Made by a program: the position numbers and the translations under genes. Under the pieces are notes generated by a model. It searched no databases, was not told the origin of the DNA, and saw only the letters and a list, made by a program, of their open reading frames with translations. Positions 1-10,689 of a DNA stretch of 64,000 nucleotides are shown here, piece after piece. The stretch's first letter is position 1. Every line of letters begins with the position of its first letter. This DNA is from Deltaproteobacteria bacterium (GTDB lineage Bacteria; Bdellovibrionota_B; Oligoflexia; Oligoflexales; Bog-1112): assembly GCA_947466225.1 (NCBI GenBank), contig CANIBL010000001.1, positions 20,720 to 84,719 on the forward strand. Direction: 5' to 3'.

Positions 1-567
1 ACGCACCTGTGCCTTGAGATCCCCCTTTTTGAACTGGATGGTGTATTGCCCCGGTTTGGTACGCAAAATTCGCGTAAGCTTATCCATCATTTCTGTGGGC
101 TGTGTAGTAACGAAAGGAAAAAAGCGGAAGATTTCCGGCAAGTATAACGGCGCGGTGGCAAAGTCACTGCGCCGATGAAGGACCTCTACGAAAGTCTGTA
201 CTTGTTGACGCGTCTTTTGACGTCGCTCAGCAGAAAGCGTGATTTTTACTTTTTCCAATGTAGAGAAAAATTGGTGCGACTCTTTATACTCAAAGTAGGC
301 TTCGTCCACTCCGAGGGTGCCCATGGCCAGATCGTGAACGAGACTGGACTCCACCTGCAGTGTTTCAGCGAGTGTCGCAAGGGCAAAGACCGAGCGTACG
401 TTTTTTTCCCCGCGTTTCCAGTGACTGCAATCGGAAGGGTTAAAGGCTAGGATGTTTCCTACCTCTTGGTCATGAATTTTGCTTCCCTTTCTCTCACTTA
501 GCACTTTTTGACAAAAGCGAAATAGCTGAGCAGAATGAGGAAATTTTGGTACACCAGGGCGTTTCAT
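1..567 (-). CDS. XRE-like helix-turn-helix domain protein (N-terminal 189 codons; 3' end runs off the window)
   Basis: The minus-strand frame is open from ATG at 567 to position 1; I hand-checked all plus-strand triplets for tta/cta/tca and found none. AAGGAG lies 7 nt upstream of the ATG. The segment DQEVGNILAFNPSDCSHWKRGEKNV resembles an XRE/HTH_3 helix-turn-helix. It is missing from the ORF track because it has no stop inside the window. Confidence 0.5.
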   Translation of the reverse strand, partial: MKRPGVPKFPHSAQLFRFCQKVLSERKGSKIHDQEVGNILAFNPSDCSHWKRGEKNVRSVFALATLAETLQVESSLVHDLAMGTLGVDEAYFEYKESHQFFSTLEKVKITLSAERRQKTRQQVQTFVEVLHRRSDFATAPLYLPEIFRFFPFVTTQPTEMMDKLTRILRTKPGQYTIQFKKGDLKAQVR

Positions 568-798
568 GGCAGGCTCCTTCTGTCTGGATGGCAACCCTCC
601 TGCTTAGAGGCTCTTGAGGACCTGTTCGCCAGGGGCATGTGTAGAAATGCGACGTAAATTTCACGGGAGATCGTACTAAAAGTATATATGGCGAAATTTT
701 CGGGGTCAAGGCTCTCTCCATGGAAGTAGTGAGAATTCCTCAATATGTTGGAGGCTGTTCGAAAAAAACCATTTATCCCCGTAATGATGGATGCGCTC

Positions 799-1128
799 TT
801 AGACAGGATGGGTCGCGTCTGTTTCTGTAATGACAGGTTTAGTGAAGGCCATATGAGGCTGCAGCACCTGATGGGTTAGACTTTGCTTGGCTTTTTGGTC
901 GCGGCGGCCCTCTATTTGGGGCCGTAACCCGTGGAGCATGCCACGAAGGCTATGAAGTACCGCCTCAAATTCTGCGGGAGCAAGGGCCAATAGTTGATCG
1001 CGGAGGGCAAGAAGCTGGGCGGCGCGTTCGCTGGCCCCTCGATGATCGGAGGCATCCCGCTCGATGCTATCGAAGTAATAGCAAAGGTTTTGAGGGGTGA
1101 TCCGATGGTTTTTCACTTTGACACTCAC
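799..1128 (-). CDS. hypothetical protein (109 aa, GTG start)
   Basis: ORF-track entry, divergent from cysS. It has a weak RBS and no recognisable motif. Confidence 0.25.
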   Translation of the reverse strand: MSVKVKNHRITPQNLCYYFDSIERDASDHRGASERAAQLLALRDQLLALAPAEFEAVLHSLRGMLHGLRPQIEGRRDQKAKQSLTHQVLQPHMAFTKPVITETDATHPV

Positions 1129-1225
1129 AGAGAATCCAGCATATGTTTCGTTGCTCCTACCCGATCGGTTTTCAGAGAAAAGTCTAGAGGGTAAAAGTTA
1201 CCTAGGCCCCCAGAGGAGAGTTGCT

Positions 1226-2668
1226 GTGAATCCTGCCCGTGAGATTGCGATCTTTAACAACCTGACCCGAAAAAAAGAACAACTTCAACCGATTGAAGAG
1301 GGTCATATTCGTATGTATGCCTGCGGCACCACCCCCTATGATGACAATCATATTGGGCATGCCATGCAGGCGGTTTTTTTCGATGTGATCCGCAATTTTT
1401 TGGAATACATGGGCTACCGCGTTACCTACGTCCGTAACTTTACGGACGTGGACGACAAGATCATTGCACGGGCCAGCATGCTCGGCATTTCACCTAAGGC
1501 CCTGGTCGATGGCATGATCGCCAAAAATACCCAGGAGATGGCGCAGCTTTCCATCCGCCCCGCTAGCTATGAGCCGCGTGTGTCGCAGACCATCCCTGAA
1601 ATCATCGCCATGGTTGAAGAACTCCTGGCAAGAGGCGCGGCCTATATGACCCCAGGTGGCGAGGTCTATTATCGGGTCCGGCAAAAAGCCGATTACGGGA
1701 AGCTGTCCAATCGAGATCCTGACGATTTGCGCTCCGGAACACGGGATATTCACCAAGGGGATAAAGAAGACCCTTTAGATTTTGCGTTGTGGAAACCTGA
1801 CTCTACTGAAGATGCTTCTTGGCCCAGTCCCTGGGGACAAGGTCGGCCCGGATGGCACATCGAATGTTCAGCTATGGCAAAAAAGCACCTCGGTCCAACA
1901 TTTGATATTCATGGAGGGGGACGTGACTTGATGTTTCCCCACCACGAAAATGAGATTGCGCAGTCTGAGTCCGCCAATGGGGTGAAATTCGCCCAAGTTT
2001 GGATTCATTCCGGCCTGCTTACGGTGGGCAATCAAAAGATGTCCAAAAGTTTAGGCAATACCGTCACCATCGAAGCTTTTCTACAGAAGTGGCCGGCAGA
2101 GGTGCTGCGTGTAGCATACCTACAAAATCACTATGCCTCCAATATCGACTTCTCTGAGAAAGTCTTTGCTGAGTGCTGCCAAAAATTGCTCTATTTCTAT
2201 GAGACTATGGAGACGTTGCGTACAAGTGCTGTGGGGAAAATAGATCTCGATATCGAATCCTATCGCACCCGTTTCCAAGCTGCCATGTGTGAGGATTTCA
2301 ATACCCCCCAGGTAATGGCGTTATTGCATCAATTGGCACGGGCAGTAAACCAAAGCCCGCTATCTGCTTCCAGTCGCGCAGCTGCATTGGTGTTGCTGCA
2401 AGAAATTGGATCTGTGCTGCAAGTATTTCAGCAAGAACCAGCAAAATTCTTGTATGAGCTCAAGAAGAAGTGGATTGGAGATCAAGGCATTTCCGAAACG
2501 GATATCTTGGCCCAGTTGGAGGCCAGAAAACAAGCAAGACAAGAGCGAAATTGGCAACAAGCCGATGCCGTTCGCGATGCGTTACACACAATGGGCATCG
2601 GGGTACAAGATACCCCTACTGGCACCACTTGGACCGTAAGGATGCGACATGGAGACGATCCAGTTTGA
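1226..2668 (+). CDS. cysS: cysteinyl-tRNA synthetase
   Basis: Class I aaRS motifs are present: HIGH (DNHIGHA) and KMSKS (QKMSKSLGN), with CysRS-like layout throughout. I moved the start from the track's 1097 to the in-frame GTG at 1226, which is preceded by GAGGAGAG. That gives the usual ~30 aa before HIGH. Confidence 0.93.
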   Translation: MNPAREIAIFNNLTRKKEQLQPIEEGHIRMYACGTTPYDDNHIGHAMQAVFFDVIRNFLEYMGYRVTYVRNFTDVDDKIIARASMLGISPKALVDGMIAKNTQEMAQLSIRPASYEPRVSQTIPEIIAMVEELLARGAAYMTPGGEVYYRVRQKADYGKLSNRDPDDLRSGTRDIHQGDKEDPLDFALWKPDSTEDASWPSPWGQGRPGWHIECSAMAKKHLGPTFDIHGGGRDLMFPHHENEIAQSESANGVKFAQVWIHSGLLTVGNQKMSKSLGNTVTIEAFLQKWPAEVLRVAYLQNHYASNIDFSEKVFAECCQKLLYFYETMETLRTSAVGKIDLDIESYRTRFQAAMCEDFNTPQVMALLHQLARAVNQSPLSASSRAAALVLLQEIGSVLQVFQQEPAKFLYELKKKWIGDQGISETDILAQLEARKQARQERNWQQADAVRDALHTMGIGVQDTPTGTTWTVRMRHGDDPV

Positions 2669-3887
2669 GAACATCGGACAATTGGTGACCTTGGCCCCTC
2701 TCGCAGCAGAGCATCGTACAACGAAGATTGAATATATAGATCTAGGCATTGTGGAAAATGCTTGGCTGCGCATTCACGAAGGTCGTGTGCATAGTTATGG
2801 AGAAATGGCGCACTGTCCCTATGCAGAAGAAACCCGAGATTTGGGTGGCGCCTTGGTGCTACCAGGGTTTGTAGATGCGCACACCCATCCGATTTTTGCT
2901 GGGAATCGTTCTCCTGAGTTTATACAACGTCTCGCTGGGATGAGCTATGAAGCCATTGCCGAACAAGGTGGGGGCATCCGTTCTACCATGGGGGCGACCC
3001 GTGGGAGCTCTCAACTGGAGCTAGAGGCGTTGACCTTATGTCGATTGCAAGCCTTTTTGCGCTGGGGCACCACGACGGTAGAAGTAAAAACTGGGTATGG
3101 TCTCTCAGTTGAGAGCGAGTTGCTCCAGCTCGAAGCCCTACAAGCGGTTAAAGAAAAAACCCCTCAAGCTATACGTGTTACCTGTCTGGCCCTTCATGCG
3201 TGTCCTCCAGAATTTTCCTCCCCCGATGCATATGCCATTGCGTTGAAAGACGAGTTGCTACCCCTTGTGGCCCAACATAATCTCGCGGATTATGTAGATG
3301 TGTTCTTAGAGCGAGGCTACTTCTCTGACTCTGTTGCCGTGAATGCATTTATGGGAGAGGCCCGGATGTTGGGTCTGGGCATTCGCGTACATGCCGATGA
3401 GTTCAGTGATGCAGGAGGGGCTCGCGCCGCAGCTCGTTGGCAAGCCGCTAGCGCTGATCATTTGCAACATGCGAGCCAAGAGGGGATTTCAGCCATGGCC
3501 CAAGCTGGGGTAACTGCAATACTGCTACCTGGGACCTCACTCTATACAAATATTCCTTTTGCCGATGCGCGCCCTTTTGTTGAAGCAGCTTGTGCGGTAG
3601 CCATTGCCTCCGATTACAATCCAGGCAGTTGCCGCATCTACAATTTGCCCCTGTTGGCAACTCTTGCTGGCGTACATTGTCACCTTTCTCTGCCTCAAGT
3701 ACTCGCCGGTATTACCTATGTGCCCAGTGTGAGTCTGGATTTGGGTACACAAAAGGGCGCGTTGGCTTGTGGCTTTGATGGGGATTTCGCAGTGTACAAC
3801 ACGGTTTCTACGGTGGAGCAATGGCTTGCTGCCTGCGGCATGCAGGGGCCGGACGCAGTCTTTATCAAGGGGGTTCGTATTGTCTGA
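2649..3887 (+). CDS. hutI: imidazolonepropionase-type amidohydrolase
   Basis: Motifs seen: GFVDAHTHPIF metal-binding motif, GNRSPEF..R..G.SYE.IA.QGGGI block, and HADE further on. The start overlaps the cysS 3' end by 20 nt, with AAGGA 6 nt upstream. Confidence 0.8.
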   Translation: METIQFENIGQLVTLAPLAAEHRTTKIEYIDLGIVENAWLRIHEGRVHSYGEMAHCPYAEETRDLGGALVLPGFVDAHTHPIFAGNRSPEFIQRLAGMSYEAIAEQGGGIRSTMGATRGSSQLELEALTLCRLQAFLRWGTTTVEVKTGYGLSVESELLQLEALQAVKEKTPQAIRVTCLALHACPPEFSSPDAYAIALKDELLPLVAQHNLADYVDVFLERGYFSDSVAVNAFMGEARMLGLGIRVHADEFSDAGGARAAARWQAASADHLQHASQEGISAMAQAGVTAILLPGTSLYTNIPFADARPFVEAACAVAIASDYNPGSCRIYNLPLLATLAGVHCHLSLPQVLAGITYVPSVSLDLGTQKGALACGFDGDFAVYNTVSTVEQWLAACGMQGPDAVFIKGVRIV

Positions 3888-4087
3888 TCTGGCCGTCTCT
3901 TTTACTAAAGACAGGTTGCTCGCGCAAAAATAGAGTGAAAATGGGTGACATGGCCTTGAAATGCCCCTGTCTTGCGTCAGAAGCTCGGTTTGGGTGTGCA
4001 ACTCTCCGTAGTCAAATCGATATACCCTACGCTCCCCTCCTCTCTTGTACTATCAGCAAAGTTCTTTGCACCAAAAGACACGCTAAT

Positions 4088-4123
<36 letters not shown>

Positions 4124-4195
4124 AGACTACGAGACTTATCTCCGAAGGGCGAAGATTTTGTAAGCCCAAGCGCCAAATGTTTTTTCGTCATGGTA

Positions 4196-4234
4196 TTTGA
4201 AGAGAAGAACGCCATCTTCTTGGCGCTCTTCAAA
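4196..4234. other. interrupted hairpin (9-bp outer stem, 5-bp inner stem)
   Basis: tttgaagag (4196-4204) pairs with ctcttcaaa (4226-4234). cgcca (4210-4214) pairs with tggcg (4221-4225). There is no flanking U-tract on either strand, so it is not a canonical terminator. Confidence 0.5.
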
Positions 4235-4391
4235 TCTATTCTGATGGGAGAATATATCTGAAGTCCACTTTGAAAGATCGAGTCTGTAGCATGAAACATC
4301 CCCCGTATGGCTTTTGAAGGGAAATAGCAGAGGAGGAAAGGATTACAAGATATTAAAGCTAACCCAAAAAGGTGATTGGAATTTCGAGTTG

Positions 4392-4495
4392 GATTTGCGA
4401 TAGGAAGACAGGGTGTCTGGATGGGTCCGCACCGGTAAAGTGGTGCCGTCGTCGGTATGCGTGTCTTGCAAGACACGCATGGTTTTACGAATTTT
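4392..4495 (-). pseudogene. displaced duplicate of the hflX 3' end (gene fragment)
   Basis: An ungapped hand alignment of 4392-4495 against 5231-5334 gives 91/104 identical bases. The fragment translates to IRKTMRVLQDTHTDDGTTLPVRTHPDTLSSYRKS. The intact HflX C-terminus reads IRKTMRVLRETHTDEGTILTVRTHPDTLSSYQKS. Confidence 0.8.
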
Positions 4496-4997
4496 TAAAT
4501 GTAAATGGGGTTTGTAAATTCCCAGCCGCAAGATAAGCTAAAAAACGCATCGTTTCTTTGTAGCCTATCTGATTTAGGTTCCATGCACCATCGCGATCTA
4601 TCATGGCTGCGTAGATGAGAATCAGTAAGGACTTGGAGGTGAGATTGGTGTAGATTTTTCCTTTCTCAAATCTGACTACCAGTTTGGTTGTATCTCCAAA
4701 ACATATAACGCGATCTGCATTTGTTACCTTTACTTCAACACAGTCCACGCCACAGCTGCCAACTTTTGTTCCATTGTGGATCCGAGAAAGATAGAGAAAG
4801 TTCATGTTTTCAGGATGTCGTTGCTTCCAAGGCACAAATTCGCTGTTACTCCAATAGCCTGTTTGCACAAGTTCAATCACCTCTCCATCTGGGAAAGTAT
4901 GAGAAAAAGAAGCGGCGTATGTAAGGCTAGAGAAGAGACCGAAGATAAGCAAGAAAGTATAATAGAGTGTCAGGAGTGATGCTTTTTCCTTCTTCAT
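4485..4997 (-). CDS. hypothetical secreted protein (170 aa)
   Basis: N-terminal signal peptide (MKKEKASLLTLYYTFLLIFGLFSSLTYA|AS) with GGGGGA about 6 nt upstream of the ATG. The stretch is AT-rich compared with its flanks. The stop codon lies inside the hflX-fragment repeat. Confidence 0.6.
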   Translation of the reverse strand: MKKEKASLLTLYYTFLLIFGLFSSLTYAASFSHTFPDGEVIELVQTGYWSNSEFVPWKQRHPENMNFLYLSRIHNGTKVGSCGVDCVEVKVTNADRVICFGDTTKLVVRFEKGKIYTNLTSKSLLILIYAAMIDRDGAWNLNQIGYKETMRFLAYLAAGNLQTPFTFKNS

Positions 4998-5211
4998 AAT
5001 CGATCCCCCAAAAGAGAGTTAAATCGGTAGATTATACTCGGATCAAGTAAAAACAATTGCCTACCGGTGTCAACTCTTTTCATTGATGGGTGACCCTTTT
5101 TAGTCCGACATTCCCAGCGCCTGAAAGGCGGCGGCAGGGATCCCCATTGCTTCTAAGCAGCAATTACCCCCTATTCAAGAAAGGCAAGAACTACCCCTCT
5201 ATGACATAAAA

Positions 5212-6591
5212 TCACAGCTGTTTTTTGTATGATTTTTGATAGGAAGACAGGGTGTCTGGATGGGTCCGTACCGTTAAAATGGTACCTTCGTCGGTATGAG
5301 TTTCTCGCAGGACACGCATGGTTTTGCGAATTTCTCCCAACTGTTTGCCTTCTTCATACGAGATCAATAGATCTGCTTCGATCATATCTTTTTCAAAATG
5401 AGTGCGAATGATTTCGCGAAGGCGCGCAATATCTTCCTTTCGTTGCGCTGACAACGCAAGTGAATGAGGAAATTCTCGCAGCAAGGCTTGGATGGCTTCC
5501 GCATCTAAGCGATCGACTTTGTTTAAAATCAATAGGCTATCTGTTGCATCGAGAGAAAGTTCACTGAGCACCGCACGCGTGACCTCCAATTGGGCACGAA
5601 ACGTGGGATCAGATGCATCTACTACATAAAGTAAAAGAGACGCATCAGAGGCCTCGTCTAGCGTAGATCGAAACGATGCAACCAAATCATGGGGCAATTT
5701 TTTGATAAATCCCACAGTATCTGAAATCAAAATACGAGGAATGGTTTCGGGTTGCATAGCGCGCACGGTGGTGTCCAACGTGGCAAACAACTTATCCTCT
5801 ACATAGATTTCACTATCGGTAAGGGCCCGCATAAGAGAGGATTTGCCTGCGTTGGTATATCCCACAAGGGCAACAGTTGACTGTTCTTTGCGTCGACTTC
5901 TTCGATCCGTATCGGTAGTTTGAATGTCGGCTAGCTCTCGCTTGAGTTCCGCAATGCGATCGCGAATACGACGTTTATCCAGTTCGTGAGCGGTTTCTCC
6001 AGCCCCCTTATTTCCCAACCCCCCACCTTGTCGATCTTGTCCAACCCGGCTCATGCGAAGACGGGGGGCTAGATAGCGTAGACGGGCAATTTCCACTTGG
6101 ATCTTGGCTTGGCGGGTTTTGGCATGACGATGGAAGATCTCAATGATGACGCCGGTTCTGTCTAATACTTCAGCCCCAGTGGCAGACTCTAAGTTGCGAA
6201 GTTGATTGGGTGTAAGCTCCTCGTCAAAGATGACGATGGTGGCTTTCTCTGCTCCAAGATCTGGGGTTTCTTCTGGCTCTTCCTCCTCCTCGAGTTCTTC
6301 TTTTCGTCGAGACCCGGGGGCAGCTGAAGCTACAATACCGGTTCCGCCCGTAAGCTTAGCTAGTTCTTCTAGTTTGCCTTCCCCAACAACAGTTGAAGCG
6401 ACCGGACTGGCTCGTCGCTGAGATAGCGTGGTGAGGGTAGCAAATCCCAATGTATGGGCAAGGCGTCCTAGTTCAGCTAGGGAGGCCATATGTTCTTCTT
6501 CAGATACGGTGGGCAACTGGAGGCCGACCAATACAGCTTTGGGTCTTTGATTCTTTTCTGGATGCAACACGATCTCTCTCCTGACTTTCAA
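5212..6591 (-). CDS. hflX: GTPase HflX
   Basis: G1 GYTNAGKSS, G3 DTVGFI and G4 NKVD are present. The HflX N-terminal domain includes an acidic EELEEEEEPEE insert. Confidence 0.93.
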   Translation of the reverse strand: MKVRREIVLHPEKNQRPKAVLVGLQLPTVSEEEHMASLAELGRLAHTLGFATLTTLSQRRASPVASTVVGEGKLEELAKLTGGTGIVASAAPGSRRKEELEEEEEPEETPDLGAEKATIVIFDEELTPNQLRNLESATGAEVLDRTGVIIEIFHRHAKTRQAKIQVEIARLRYLAPRLRMSRVGQDRQGGGLGNKGAGETAHELDKRRIRDRIAELKRELADIQTTDTDRRSRRKEQSTVALVGYTNAGKSSLMRALTDSEIYVEDKLFATLDTTVRAMQPETIPRILISDTVGFIKKLPHDLVASFRSTLDEASDASLLLYVVDASDPTFRAQLEVTRAVLSELSLDATDSLLILNKVDRLDAEAIQALLREFPHSLALSAQRKEDIARLREIIRTHFEKDMIEADLLISYEEGKQLGEIRKTMRVLRETHTDEGTILTVRTHPDTLSSYQKSYKKQL

Positions 6592-6762
6592 GGCTCAATG
6601 GCCTGATGGCGTATATCGTACACGACCTTTGCCGTCAAATCTGCAGAAAGTCCTACAGGGATCTGATAAATGGAGATACAATGAGGGACATTATAGCGCT
6701 GTCAAACCAGCTGCCATAAAAATATAGCGTTCACGAGAAATACACGTAGAAAGGGGTCCGCC

Positions 6763-6894
6763 ATGGGCGACAAATCTCCAAAATCAACCAAGAAGCAAAC
6801 AGATCAGAAGAAAAATAAGGCTGAAAGTGACAAGCAAAAGAAGCAAAAAGCCATAGACGACAGAAAATCTGCGCCGCCTGCTAAGAAAAAGTAA
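6763..6894 (+). CDS. small lysine-rich basic protein (43 aa), below the ORF-track cutoff
   Basis: ATG at 6763 is preceded by gaaagggg. Translation: MGDKSPKSTKKQTDQKKNKAESDKQKKQKAIDDRKSAPPAKKK, with TAA at 6892-6894. It lies in the otherwise empty hflX-dprA gap. Confidence 0.4.
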   Translation: MGDKSPKSTKKQTDQKKNKAESDKQKKQKAIDDRKSAPPAKKK

Positions 6895-8775: not shown

Positions 8776-10689
8776 GCCGTTGCTGTGCGTGTGAGAAGGA
8801 CGGTTATGATCCCGGCTTCCGTGGCGAGGTGCATTGTCTCGGTTGCCTTGACGATGCCCATCGCGAGGTTGATCGCGGCCACCATCCCGTCTGGAGTCCC
8901 GGTATCCGCCTCGATCTCGGTTTCGATCTTGGGGGCCCTGATCTCGGCGAGGTCCACGAGAGTCAGGATAATTGCCATCGCGTCGAGCGCCCTCTCGGTT
9001 GTAGCTATCACGGTTGCGATTTGCATTGCGATCATAGGGCGGACGATTGCGGTCTTGGCCGTATGGGGGGCGATTCTGGCCGCTACCAGATTTTCTACCT
9101 GCCGTTTTTGGCTTAGGACGGAAGAAAGAGAGTACCTTGTCCACGAGGCGTACCCACCAGGAACGCTTCTCTTGTTTGCGCAAGAGCTCTTGTTGGTAGC
9201 GCTGCTGGTAGCTTTGCTCGATGGGGTCTGTACTCGAACGCGTAGGTTGAGGACGACGGGATTCTTGGGGCTGAGGACGGGGTTGTCTGGCTCGTTGTTC
9301 TCGTTCCATTTCTAGTTGGGCCTTCTTTTGTTCCCAATTTTCATCGTACTCGAATCCTCGTTTGGATTGCGGGTCGAAGCGCAGGATTTGGGAGGAAAAT
9401 GGGTTTCCTGCATGGTCAGGGGTTTGCAACCACTCGTTTGCGATCCAAGCTGGCTTGGGGCAACTCTTCCCCAGGAGCTCTTGGATGCCAACGAAGTTTT
9501 CGCCGTAGCAATCGCAGATCAAACTGTAGGCTTTGCCTTGCGCGCCGGCGCGAGCGGTACGCCCAATCCGGTGGATGTAGCTAGAAGGCTCATCTGGCAA
9601 ATCAAAGTTGTACACATGGGTAATACCGGGAATATGAAGGCCGCGGCTGGCCACATCCGTTGCGATCAAGATGTTGGTGTTGCCGGCTTTCAGATTTTTG
9701 ATCAAGCGAACTCGCTTGTTCTGAGGCAAATCTCCCGTGATGATATCTGCGGGAATCTGATTGGCGCGCAATTTGTAATGCAACCAAGCTGCAGTAAGTC
9801 GTGTATTGGTAAACACCACACTACGCTGGCCCTGGGTTTGCCGAAGGAGGTACAACAGAACTTTGATTTTTTCTGGCGCTTCACACATGAGAGCATGCTG
9901 CTCGATGCGTTCGGGTGTAATTTCTTCGTGGTTCAACGATACATACTCGGGTTCGTTGAGGTACTCGAAGATTACTTCGTCAACAGCATCGCTACTGGTC
10001 GCAGAGAAGAGAAGTTTTTGGCTTGTCGGCGCAAGCTTATCCAGGAAAAGTTCCAAATCTTGGATAAAGCCCATGTCGCACATGCGATCTACTTCATCGC
10101 AGACAAAAATTTGAATGTCTTCAAAGCGAAATGCATCTTTGGAAATAAAGTCTTTGAGCCGACCGGGTGTGGCCACGATTACCGCAGGGGTTTTCTGAAG
10201 TTCTTTGTACTGCTCATCCCAGTCCATACCGCCTACGGTCACCACATTTTTGAGTCCTAATGGGGCAAAAAGAAGGGTGAGTTCGTCCCCGATTTGCATA
10301 GCAAGTTCGCGGGTAGGGGTAATGACGAGGCCAAAGGTGGTAAGCGGAATGTCTTTGGCCTTTGCATTCAGGTAGAAATTCGCCAATGTGATGGCAAAAG
10401 CACCGGTTTTTCCGGATCCCGTTTGGGCAAAACCCGCAATGTCTCTACCGCGCAGACTGTGCGGCAAGGTCCTGGCTTGAATCGGCGTGGGGGCTGTCCA
10501 CTGGATACGGCGCAATTGCTCCATGATCTCGGGCACAACCCCGGCTTCCTCAAAAGTCTCACAGGGAGGCGGGGGAAGAGGCAGTACCAAAGTCTCAAGG
10601 AGAGGCGCTGCAGTCTCGAGAGAGGGAGACTCAGAGGGGAGTGGCGCCGCAGTCTCGAGCTTCTCTGTATCCAATTGATTTTCTTGCAT
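8707..10689 (-). CDS. DEAD-box ATP-dependent RNA helicase with a long R/D/G/N-rich C-terminal tail
   Basis: Q motif PTPIQ, motif I AQTGSGKT, motif II DEVD, motif III SAT and motif VI HRIGRTARAG are present. The last ~190 aa are low-complexity (RNRPPYGQDRNRPPYDRNANRNRD...). Confidence 0.9.
   Translation of the reverse strand: MQENQLDTEKLETAAPLPSESPSLETAAPLLETLVLPLPPPPCETFEEAGVVPEIMEQLRRIQWTAPTPIQARTLPHSLRGRDIAGFAQTGSGKTGAFAITLANFYLNAKAKDIPLTTFGLVITPTRELAMQIGDELTLLFAPLGLKNVVTVGGMDWDEQYKELQKTPAVIVATPGRLKDFISKDAFRFEDIQIFVCDEVDRMCDMGFIQDLELFLDKLAPTSQKLLFSATSSDAVDEVIFEYLNEPEYVSLNHEEITPERIEQHALMCEAPEKIKVLLYLLRQTQGQRSVVFTNTRLTAAWLHYKLRANQIPADIITGDLPQNKRVRLIKNLKAGNTNILIATDVASRGLHIPGITHVYNFDLPDEPSSYIHRIGRTARAGAQGKAYSLICDCYGENFVGIQELLGKSCPKPAWIANEWLQTPDHAGNPFSSQILRFDPQSKRGFEYDENWEQKKAQLEMEREQRARQPRPQPQESRRPQPTRSSTDPIEQSYQQRYQQELLRKQEKRSWWVRLVDKVLSFFRPKPKTAGRKSGSGQNRPPYGQDRNRPPYDRNANRNRDSYNREGARRDGNYPDSRGPRRDQGPQDRNRDRGGYRDSRRDGGRDQPRDGHRQGNRDNAPRHGSRDHNRPSHTHSNGSHSQRSHGSDSRGHAPLKKDET

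Follow-up and report, generated by a model that had tools for sequence, protein, structure and literature searches.

In the genome analysed here, a segment carrying one gene was inserted into the 3′ end of hflX, and the two repeats that flank it are both hybrids of native and foreign sequence. We estimate a probability of about 0.7 that this 839-bp unit entered through one reciprocal (Campbell-type) crossover with an incoming copy of the hflX end. In neutral terms, the locus can be described as a Campbell-type single crossover or as an insertion accompanied by a long target duplication. To our knowledge, the mode of entry of small integrase-less inserts with long flanking repeats has been an open question since 2000, and most of the published long-repeat inserts that we know of have near-identical repeats, which are uninformative on mechanism. 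The hflX repeats are diverged enough for the crossover to be read, and sister strains supply the empty site.

Repeat pair at the hflX end and the empty site in relatives

The direct repeats 4392-4495 and 5231-5334 differ at 13 of 104 nt in a position-by-position comparison, which is exactly the 91/104 identity given in the earlier note. A repeat search of the window (the whole stretch of 64,000 nucleotides) returned 4392-4494 and 5231-5333 as a 103-nt pair with 88% identity, and BLAST of the two segments, a check proposed in the same note, gave a match at E = 2.6e-30. Also in line with that note, both copies encode the HflX C-terminal peptide and only the 5231-5334 copy is contiguous with hflX, whose product scored 376 bits against TIGR03156 (cut-off 216.75). 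The 2.12-Mb genome has these two copies and no others, and the repeat is therefore no multi-copy element. The features of the region are as follows.

5212-6591, minus strand: hflX, intact, encoding a ribosome-associated GTPase (Pfam GTP-bdg_N, GTP-bdg_M and MMR_HSR1; TIGR03156)
5231-5334, minus strand: proximal repeat copy, an attL-like hybrid with a native upstream arm (5269-5334), the identical core (5238-5268) and a foreign downstream arm (5231-5237)
4496-5230, minus strand: inserted DNA of 735 nt (42% GC), unique and without counterpart in any of the relatives
5103-5145, no strand assigned: incomplete, degenerate copy of a palindromic repeat element (91 nt) that occurs abundantly in the genome and its genus
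4485-4997, minus strand: ORF170, a 170-aa ORFan with a signal-peptide-like N-terminal segment; its last three codons and stop lie inside the foreign arm of the distal repeat
4457-4480, minus strand: perfect 24-nt palindrome (perfect self-complement) predicted to form a 10-bp hairpin, 4 nt (4481-4484) past the ORF170 stop
4392-4495, minus strand: distal repeat copy, an attR-like hybrid with a foreign upstream arm (4430-4495), the identical core (4399-4429) and a native downstream arm (4392-4398)
4343-4398, minus strand: native hflX tail (..YRKSNSKFQSPFWVSFNIL*), displaced and reduced to a pseudogene fragment, which aligns to the L097 HflX tail
4139-4292, minus strand: remnant of a 600-aa gene (first 7 and last 45 codons), outside the insertion

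For relatives without ORF170, one hflX end had been predicted, with the 4391-side sequence immediately after it. This empty site was found in L097 (96.9% identity), L098/L099 (92%) and L100 (89%), each with one segment of 103 nt that can be aligned with both copies and runs on into position 4391 and leftwards. Because of this arrangement in the relatives, the distal copy and its left flank are read as the native hflX end pushed aside, and the 4343-4398 tail aligns to the real L097 HflX tail (..YRKSNSKSQSPFF*) and continues into the common flank. hflX is 96.9% identical to L097 as far as position 5231, and its last 8 codons and stop (5212-5237) appear to have been supplied by the incoming DNA. 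The proposal that the incoming DNA gave a replacement gene end thus stands for these 8 codons and the stop, but not for the whole 104 nt. For annotation, the 4343-4495 fragment is a displaced gene end and no gene, and hflX is intact with a chimeric tail.

A same-genus genome, G001, was uninformative, since the hflX paralogue in question is missing from it and the locus coincides with a break between its contigs. Orthologues from the family and order (52-81% identity) showed no synteny and were too diverged to separate the copies at the DNA level; they were used for amino-acid polarity only. A second hflX C-terminal fragment was found in none of the 94 other genomes of the order (95 including this genome). 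Outside the insertion, an intact 600-aa counterpart of the 4139-4292 remnant sits between hflX and hutI in L098/L099 (tblastn, 73% over 45 aa, E = 3e-19), and the alignment breakpoints agree. The neighbouring genes include dprA and one for a pilus-type ATPase.

Recombination of the two copies within the core would yield exactly the L097 sequence, as expected if the duplicated arrangement were ancestral and had been lost in the relatives by repeat recombination, with no insertion in this lineage. We regard this as very improbable: separate precise losses would be needed in L097, L098/L099 and L100, the outgroup tails are orthologous to the distal flank and not to the proximal tail, and ORF170 was not found outside this strain. 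The genome is a 70-contig metagenome-assembled genome, in which a strain chimera or a collapsed bubble might generate such a repeat. However, a second public assembly (contig L086) agrees base for base, with 100% identity across window positions 1-6803, and the copies differ at 13 sites and have at most 31 identical nt in common, far under the assembly k-mer. The distal arm matches no sampled allele and bears non-conservative changes, and the joints between insert and hflX are without shared sequence, which makes an assembly artefact extremely improbable.

Mosaic structure of the copies and the proposed crossover

L097 is identical to the proximal copy at 10 of the 11 differences located upstream of the core (site 5310 shows the opposite) and to the distal copy at both downstream differences; the mosaic reading is based on 13 sites, with a switch point inside the 31-nt identical block 5238-5268/4399-4429. 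Judged by these sites, each copy is a hybrid, and reciprocally so: the proximal one is native upstream and foreign downstream of the block, and the distal one is the reverse, its native downstream arm 4392-4398 running on into the native flank. A reconstruction joining the proximal upstream arm, the core and the distal downstream arm was identical to L097 at 120 of 123 positions, whereas the reciprocal reconstruction reached only 76-80% identity to any relative. In the downstream codon, the proximal CAA matches the outgroups, and CGC is common to the distal copy and L097. No donor tract was found further upstream in hflX, where 1-3 differences per 100 nt were counted beside the repeat.

The distal upstream arm seems too diverged for decay in place, because the distal copy differs from L097 at 11/66 positions in this arm versus 1/57 in the core and downstream part (Fisher p = 0.0055), and because the four-fold-site divergence to L097 (9.7%) leads to an expectation of about 3.2 changes in the arm since the split, when at least 10 were observed (p = 0.002). 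The 12.5% divergence of the repeats, arranged as a reciprocal mosaic, argues against a target duplication and for crossover with a homeologous copy that existed beforehand.

In a true long target duplication, produced by staggered breaks and fill-in or by homology-facilitated illegitimate recombination with its illegitimate joint 104 nt upstream, both copies would first have been identical and native, and the distal upstream arm would have changed in place as it decayed and as the stop and hairpin of ORF170 were selected for. The original description of the class was in such terms (PMC2853133), and the repeats at the pyruvate carboxylase locus of the same genome, described below, are 90/90 identical. 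Four distal-arm changes are of obvious use to ORF170 (stop, perfect palindrome), and at all five informative amino-acid differences the distal copy has the derived state when compared with four more distant HflX orthologues (distal-arm states Q, D, D, T and P). We nevertheless consider a true duplication unlikely, since the differences of each copy lie on one side of the core only, reciprocally, and since the divergence of the distal arm exceeds the expected decay. Once the stop and hairpin changes are set aside, 5 changes in 27 nt are still left, and two neighbouring changes (CGC to CAA) would have had to arise in the proximal copy and match the outgroups by chance. Moreover, no Ku gene was found in the genome, and NHEJ capture of the insert was rejected on the same ground.

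An insertion older than the L097 split, followed by loss from L097 through repeat recombination, would allow more time and weaken the rate argument.

According to the single-crossover reading that we favour, the incoming unit would have comprised ORF170, its upstream spacer and a copy of about 104 nt of the hflX 3′ end from a diverged relative, approximately 83% identical to resident hflX, probably in the form of a circular intermediate. Crossover inside the 31-nt stretch identical between the incoming copy and the chromosome would leave hflX with its own sequence up to the core, followed by 8 codons and a stop of foreign origin. A relic made up of the native end and the flank downstream of it would thereby come to lie 839 bp away, and its upstream arm would be the foreign hflX-like arm, giving ORF170 its stop and the nearby hairpin. 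Excision between the direct repeats should restore a single hybrid hflX end.

Inserted gene and similarly built loci

The insert had been described earlier as an AT-rich segment of about 735 bp with one ORF. Its size (735 nt) and its single ORF (4485-4997, minus strand) were confirmed, but its low GC content is modest (42% versus a genome mean of 48%). No counterpart of 4496-5230 was found in L097, L098, L099, L100 or G001, and no further copy in its own genome. ORF170 lies wholly inside the putative foreign block, stop and hairpin included, and its TAA stop depends, as noticed previously, on a difference between the repeats (T/C on the gene strand, 4487 versus 5326). The 4457-4480 palindrome is made from hflX-derived sequence through three changes specific to the distal copy, with a predicted fold of -21.3 kcal/mol (z = -3.7), whereas the native equivalents do not fold (z of -0.7 and +0.1). 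Three distal-arm changes could stem from one quasipalindrome template-switch mutation instead of inherited divergence.

The codon-usage score of ORF170 (+0.081 per codon) was reached by no out-of-frame chunk of real genes and corresponds to the 11th percentile among real-gene chunks. Among 5.8 billion proteins, the only match retrieved was ORF170 itself; two weak remote matches to repeat proteins in an exhaustive HMMER search were not trusted as homology. No family was found in Pfam, NCBIfam or PADLOC, the best PHROG match was non-significant (E = 0.062), and a single-sequence AF2 model was unusable (pLDDT 39). Scans of the region for Rfam families, tRNAs, promoters and terminators gave nothing above chance. 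For annotation, ORF170 can be treated as strain-specific cargo.

A genome-wide screen revealed two further loci with 90-152-nt direct repeats around integrase-less inserts. At the end of the pyruvate carboxylase gene, a 90-nt duplication surrounds a 1687-nt, one-gene insert with 34% GC, and empty sites were found in L109, L110 and L112; its identical repeats cannot separate a crossover from a true target duplication. In L107, the distal copy of the pyruvate carboxylase end seemed to contain an extra 100 nt, but these are just Ns that fill a scaffold gap. The other locus, at a tRNA flank, has a 152-nt duplication and no match in G001. As cargo, the loci carry a small secreted ORFan, an ORFan of 491 aa, or an AbiE pair with an oxidoreductase.

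Site-specific integration of a larger element by an integrase, of the kind known for e14 in icd and for ICE/CIME at fda, with an attP mimicking the hflX end, would leave hybrid attL/attR-like copies that share an identical core, as well as a displaced native end and its replacement, as described for e14/icd/icdC (PMC13626634), if all but 839 bp were later deleted or if the cassette were mobilised in trans. The genome has three tyrosine- and two serine-recombinase matches, all of them on other contigs (C6, C22, C28, C50 and C69). However, no recombinase gene or remnant was found in 4430-5237 or in the neighbouring genes, hflX is no recurrent att site in the order (the second C-terminal fragment is seen in 0/94 other genomes), and an exact-pattern scan of genome, viral and metagenome collections gave no match to the 31-nt core. 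The two additional integrase-less inserts have unrelated long repeats, and the hflX and pyruvate carboxylase inserts have no ends, motifs or sequence in common. Integration by an integrase thus appears quite unlikely. The earlier note had proposed a scar of site-specific integration or a duplication-insertion; the insertion is supported by the empty sites, but site-specificity is not, as there is neither a linked integrase nor a duplicated hflX end in the 94 other genomes.

The lack of a linked recombinase, the MEPS-like length of the identical block and the two other integrase-less long-repeat loci suggest that the single crossover was carried out by host homologous recombination (RecA) and not by a dedicated integrase; RecA is present in the genome. 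Neither a donor nor a free circle, nor another copy of ORF170 or of the insert, turned up in searches of protein, genome, viral and metagenome collections, and we therefore infer the mobility of the unit from one footprint only. Tentatively, the hflX, pyruvate carboxylase and tRNA-flank units might be recombinase-free "homology-hitchhiking" cassettes, each carrying about 100 nt of its target, forming a circle by repeat recombination, passing between related strains and re-entering by one host-mediated crossover. If this were true, the hflX mosaic would be the first natural footprint of a "release and re-invade" step that has been proposed for inserts with long target duplications but is not known to have been observed. 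With three similarly built loci, this one genome may offer a natural system for the study of recombinase-free gene gain by single homologous crossover.

Comparison with known insertion systems

The closest known class is the insertion with long target duplication (Nobusato 2000, Gene 259:99; Furuta 2010, PMC2853133), of which the hflX locus is a clear example. As in that class, direct repeats of more than 30 bp (here 104 nt) surround a short insert without a mobility gene, a related genome has one repeat copy at an empty site, and the repeat is unique in the genome and spans the stop region of a gene that stays intact. The insert (735 nt, one ORF, no family match) is well below the 20-kb limit of the class and has no integrase or transposase. 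In contrast to the cases from published screens, the cargo is not a restriction-modification system, ORF170 being without family match, and the host is an uncultured Oligoflexales-like bacterium. The hflX repeats also depart from a true target duplication in that they are reciprocal native and foreign hybrids and not both target-derived, a departure which touches the mechanism implied by the class name, not the descriptive class. For these inserts, a life cycle of excision and reinvasion has been put forward, of which the reinvasion step was not supported by evidence (PMC2853133).

In E. coli K-12, e14 or phage 21 in icd leaves the icdC pseudogene (Hill et al. 1989, as reported in PMC13626634). 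In both systems the 3′ end of a housekeeping gene was entered, a slightly different replacement end was supplied and the native end was displaced as a C-terminal fragment pseudogene, with hybrid attL/attR-like copies around an identical core; excision recreates a chimeric gene (PMC13626634), as it should at hflX. Unlike e14, a prophage of 15 kb that brings its own integrase and excision functions, the hflX insert is 839 bp long, has one gene and no recombinase, and replaced 8 codons; neither an integrase beside the att site nor recurrent att use was found at hflX.

At Rhs/T6SS effector loci, C-terminal displacement likewise involves incoming DNA that is anchored by homology in the conserved portion of a resident gene and takes the place of that gene's end, while the old end moves downstream and becomes an orphan; there, and in homology-facilitated illegitimate recombination, one joint is homologous and one illegitimate, and the displaced piece is all resident DNA (PMC5361080). 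At hflX, by contrast, a single 31-nt block contains both joints, and what was displaced is a hybrid piece whose upstream arm is not resident-like. In Campbell integration of a suicide vector, a single crossover duplicates the cloned fragment around the insert, and the copies are reciprocal chromosomal/incoming hybrids. The hflX locus would differ from this laboratory procedure in being a natural case, with about 104 nt of 87% identical homology, no vector functions and a circle that is presumed, and resembles it in the doubling of a homologous fragment around the insert, with copies that are reciprocal hybrids.

Repeat pair, hflX and gene order

The earlier note had described direct repeats at 4392-4495 (distal copy) and 5231-5334 (proximal copy), identical at 91 of 104 positions, and a position-by-position table gave the corresponding 13 differences per 104 nt. 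A repeat finder returned 4392-4494 versus 5231-5333 (103 nt, 88% identity), BLAST between the two segments gave an E-value of 2.6e-30, and two copies, no more, were found across the 2.12-Mb, 70-contig genome. As had also been claimed, the proximal copy alone is contiguous with hflX, a single minus-strand ORF of 170 codons (4485-4997; ORF170) lies between the copies, and its stop arises from a repeat difference, the TAA hinging on T/C on the gene strand (4487 versus 5326). The observation was thus confirmed as a whole. The 735-nt segment separating the copies has a GC content of 42%, the genome averaging 48%. Along the locus follow cysS, hutI, a 500-nt gap, distal copy, ORF170, hflX, a small ORF and dprA, and window 1-6803 is identical in a second public assembly contig.

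5212-6591, minus strand: hflX (Pfam GTP-bdg_N/M and MMR_HSR1; TIGR03156 at 376 bits versus a cut-off of 217)
6763-6894, plus strand: 43-aa lysine-rich small ORF, divergent from hflX

The best-named relatives of this HflX were Oligoflexales/Oligoflexus, and no synteny at the locus was common with more distant orthologues. A second hflX paralogue, 46% identical, was found on another contig (G000:C36:19488-20351). The single same-genus genome in the species set (sister genome G001), whose contigs break at the locus, carries only this other paralogue; the studied hflX is therefore patchily distributed in the family (6/15 genomes). The small ORF is strongly conserved beside hflX in L093, L094 and L095 (pattern MGDKSPKS.KKQ..QKKNK...KQKKQK..DD.K....P.KKK), and since HflX is just 77-81% identical there, this marks it as a genuine gene for a small protein, linked to hflX.

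Empty sites in relatives and hybrid structure of the copies

Relatives were taken from the 90%-identity protein cluster of the studied HflX, which holds three further members with synteny kept. In the closest, L097 (hflX 96.9% identical), the order is dprA, small ORF, hflX, 470 nt, hutI, cysS, and ORF170 is absent from the locus; bases 9238-9340 align to both 5333-5231 and 4494-4392, the alignment continuing through window 4391-323. L098/L099 (92%) and L100 (89%) likewise have one repeat copy, then the 4391-side flank, so that the predicted single hflX end running directly into this flank was seen in all of these relatives. Because the insert is present in this strain alone and absent at three depths of relationship, its gain here is the parsimonious reading. 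The HflX tails of outgroups (..YQKSHPKSQ*, ..YQKSHAKSN*) and of L097 (..YRKSNSKSQSPFF*) have their orthologous counterpart in the distal flank and not in the proximal tail (..YQKSYKKQL*).

Other changes were noted on this side of hflX. The studied strain and L097 form a clade in which the ancestral stop TAA (L098, L100) is TCA (L097 9341-9371); this lengthened native HflX by 4 residues, and the insertion later restored a 452-aa-type length. Of a gene encoding a 600-aa signal-peptide protein, which L098/L099 keep intact between hflX and hutI, window 4139-4292 (minus strand) retains as a remnant the first 7 codons and the last 45, about 1.65 kb being deleted in the studied strain and L097. A (GA)n tract at 4091-4119 varies between strains; in L097 the corresponding tract is shorter, with some 30 unrelated bases interrupting it.

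Both copies share an identical core of 31 nt (gene strand CGGACCCATCCAGACACCCTGTCTTCCTATC; 5238-5268 and 4399-4429). Upstream of it on the gene strand, L097 agrees with the proximal copy at 10/11 differences, and downstream with the distal copy at 2/2. Joining the proximal upstream arm, core and distal downstream arm gives a sequence identical to L097 at 120 of 123 positions; the reverse combination of distal upstream arm, core and proximal downstream arm with its tail reaches just 76-80% identity to any of the relatives. Given this switch at the core and these identities, the copies are reciprocal hybrids: read along the gene strand, the proximal one passes at the core from native to foreign, and the distal one from foreign to native. 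The earlier interpretation of an insertion into the hflX 3' end was thus supported, with refinements, the foreign sequence in the proximal copy starting past the core. Both switch points are accounted for together if the chromosome underwent a single reciprocal crossover with an incoming hflX-like segment, whereas a double crossover bringing in a pre-existing insertion would be expected to place them anywhere in the flanks.

The distal upstream arm might merely have decayed in place. However, the distal copy differs from L097 at 11/66 positions in this arm and at 1/57 across core, downstream arm and tail taken together (Fisher p=0.0055). Four-fold-site divergence in hflX between the studied strain and L097 is 9.7%, which predicts about 3.2 neutral substitutions per 66 nt since their split, against at least 10 observed (p=0.002); this time argument is weaker if L097 lost an older insertion. 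At a downstream codon, the proximal copy has CAA like the outgroups, and CGC is common to L097 and the distal copy. The argument for a foreign arm rests on few sites, and site 5310 goes the opposite way. At each of the five informative amino-acid differences, the distal copy has the derived state (versus four 77-81% orthologues), so its upstream arm was not under HflX constraint. Divergence in hflX is not raised directly upstream of the repeat (1-3 per 100 nt), so that no donor tract reaches into the gene.

ORF170 and the inserted DNA

ORF170 is classed as coding by its score of +0.081 per codon, which lies at the 11th percentile for chunks of real genes and above every out-of-frame chunk of such genes; its N-terminus reads as a signal-peptide-like segment. 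No homologue was found among 5.8 billion proteins, an exhaustive search returning two weak matches and no others. Pfam, NCBIfam and PADLOC gave no family, and the one PHROG match was non-significant. A single-sequence structure model was not usable.

The junction 4495/4496 lies three codons ahead of the ORF170 end, and were it not for the C-to-T change at 4487, the frame would extend by about 44 codons. A 9/12 quasi-palindrome is made perfect by three more distal-specific changes, and the resulting 24-nt palindrome (4457-4480) folds as a 10-bp hairpin 4 nt (4481-4484) past the stop (-21.3 kcal/mol, z=-3.7); its native equivalents showed no fold in the same test. The foreign arm supplies ORF170 with both stop and hairpin, and the perfect palindrome may stem from selection on a 3' end or from one template-switch mutation. 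No U-tract follows the hairpin, and a canonical terminator was therefore ruled out.

Within the spacer, 5103-5145 is a degenerate part of a 91-nt palindromic element. This element is highly structured (consensus fold, -52 kcal/mol), with well over 100 BLAST matches, many partial, on most contigs of the 2.1-Mb genome (e.g., C40:149-239, C14:15410-15500); its 5' part has >25 matches in the sister genome, several at contig ends. As the spacer holds a piece of an element common to both genomes, this hints that the inserted DNA may be drawn from the same gene pool.

Recombination route and known systems

No recombinase gene was found in or beside the insert; the five tyrosine/serine recombinase matches in the genome are all on other contigs. 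A second hflX C-terminal fragment occurs in no other genome of the 95 in the order, and the 31-nt core was not found in viral, genome or metagenome collections. The genome encodes RecA, and no Ku was found in it. Low-copy direct repeats were screened for across the whole genome, which gave only six pairs, two of which similarly enclose integrase-less inserts. At the first (locus L101), the last 30 codons of the pyruvate carboxylase gene are duplicated (90/90 identical; G000:C28 2324-2413 and 4101-4190) and enclose 1687 nt (34% GC) in which the one gene is a 491-aa ORFan bearing a signal-peptide-like start. Four relatives (L110, L112, L113 and L109, the last from the same assembly as L097) have an empty site, where a 322-aa neighbour abuts the pyruvate carboxylase end, and the native tail ..EVLPT* has become ..EVL*. 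At the second (locus L102), a 152-nt repeat (98.7%; G000:C47 1-152 and 3240-3391), made of 9 nt of a tRNA 3' end (tRNA 3383-3456, minus strand) and 143 nt of flank, encloses an AbiEi/AbiEii toxin-antitoxin pair and a GFO/IDH/MocA oxidoreductase with no integrase between; no empty site was found for this locus, and contig C47 begins within the repeat. The hflX and pyruvate carboxylase inserts have no sequence in common. Host homologous recombination rather than a dedicated integrase is thus favoured at hflX, because no recombinase is linked, the hflX end is not duplicated elsewhere in the order, the core was not found, RecA is present, and two similar integrase-less loci exist, with inserts lacking common sequence.

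The e14 element in icd, with its icdC relic (PMC13626634), has the same anatomy, although the hflX insert is without integrase. Homology-facilitated illegitimate recombination and Rhs/T6SS C-terminal displacement (PMC5361080) differ in that the displaced end is wholly resident DNA. By description, the hflX insert fits 'insertion with long target duplication', in which long, variable direct repeats surround a short insert without mobility genes (Nobusato 2000; Furuta 2010, PMC2853133). In this class, a related genome has the empty site, repeats often span the stop codon so that the target gene survives, and inserts are reported mostly from naturally competent bacteria; a 'release and re-invade' cycle was proposed, not observed (PMC2853133). 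The hybrid copies would show that the hflX insert came in by crossover with a homeologous copy carried on incoming DNA, and its arrival agrees with such a cycle. The hflX insertion is another case of this already known class, to which it adds cargo other than RM genes, a new lineage and repeats with sufficient divergence for the crossover to be read.
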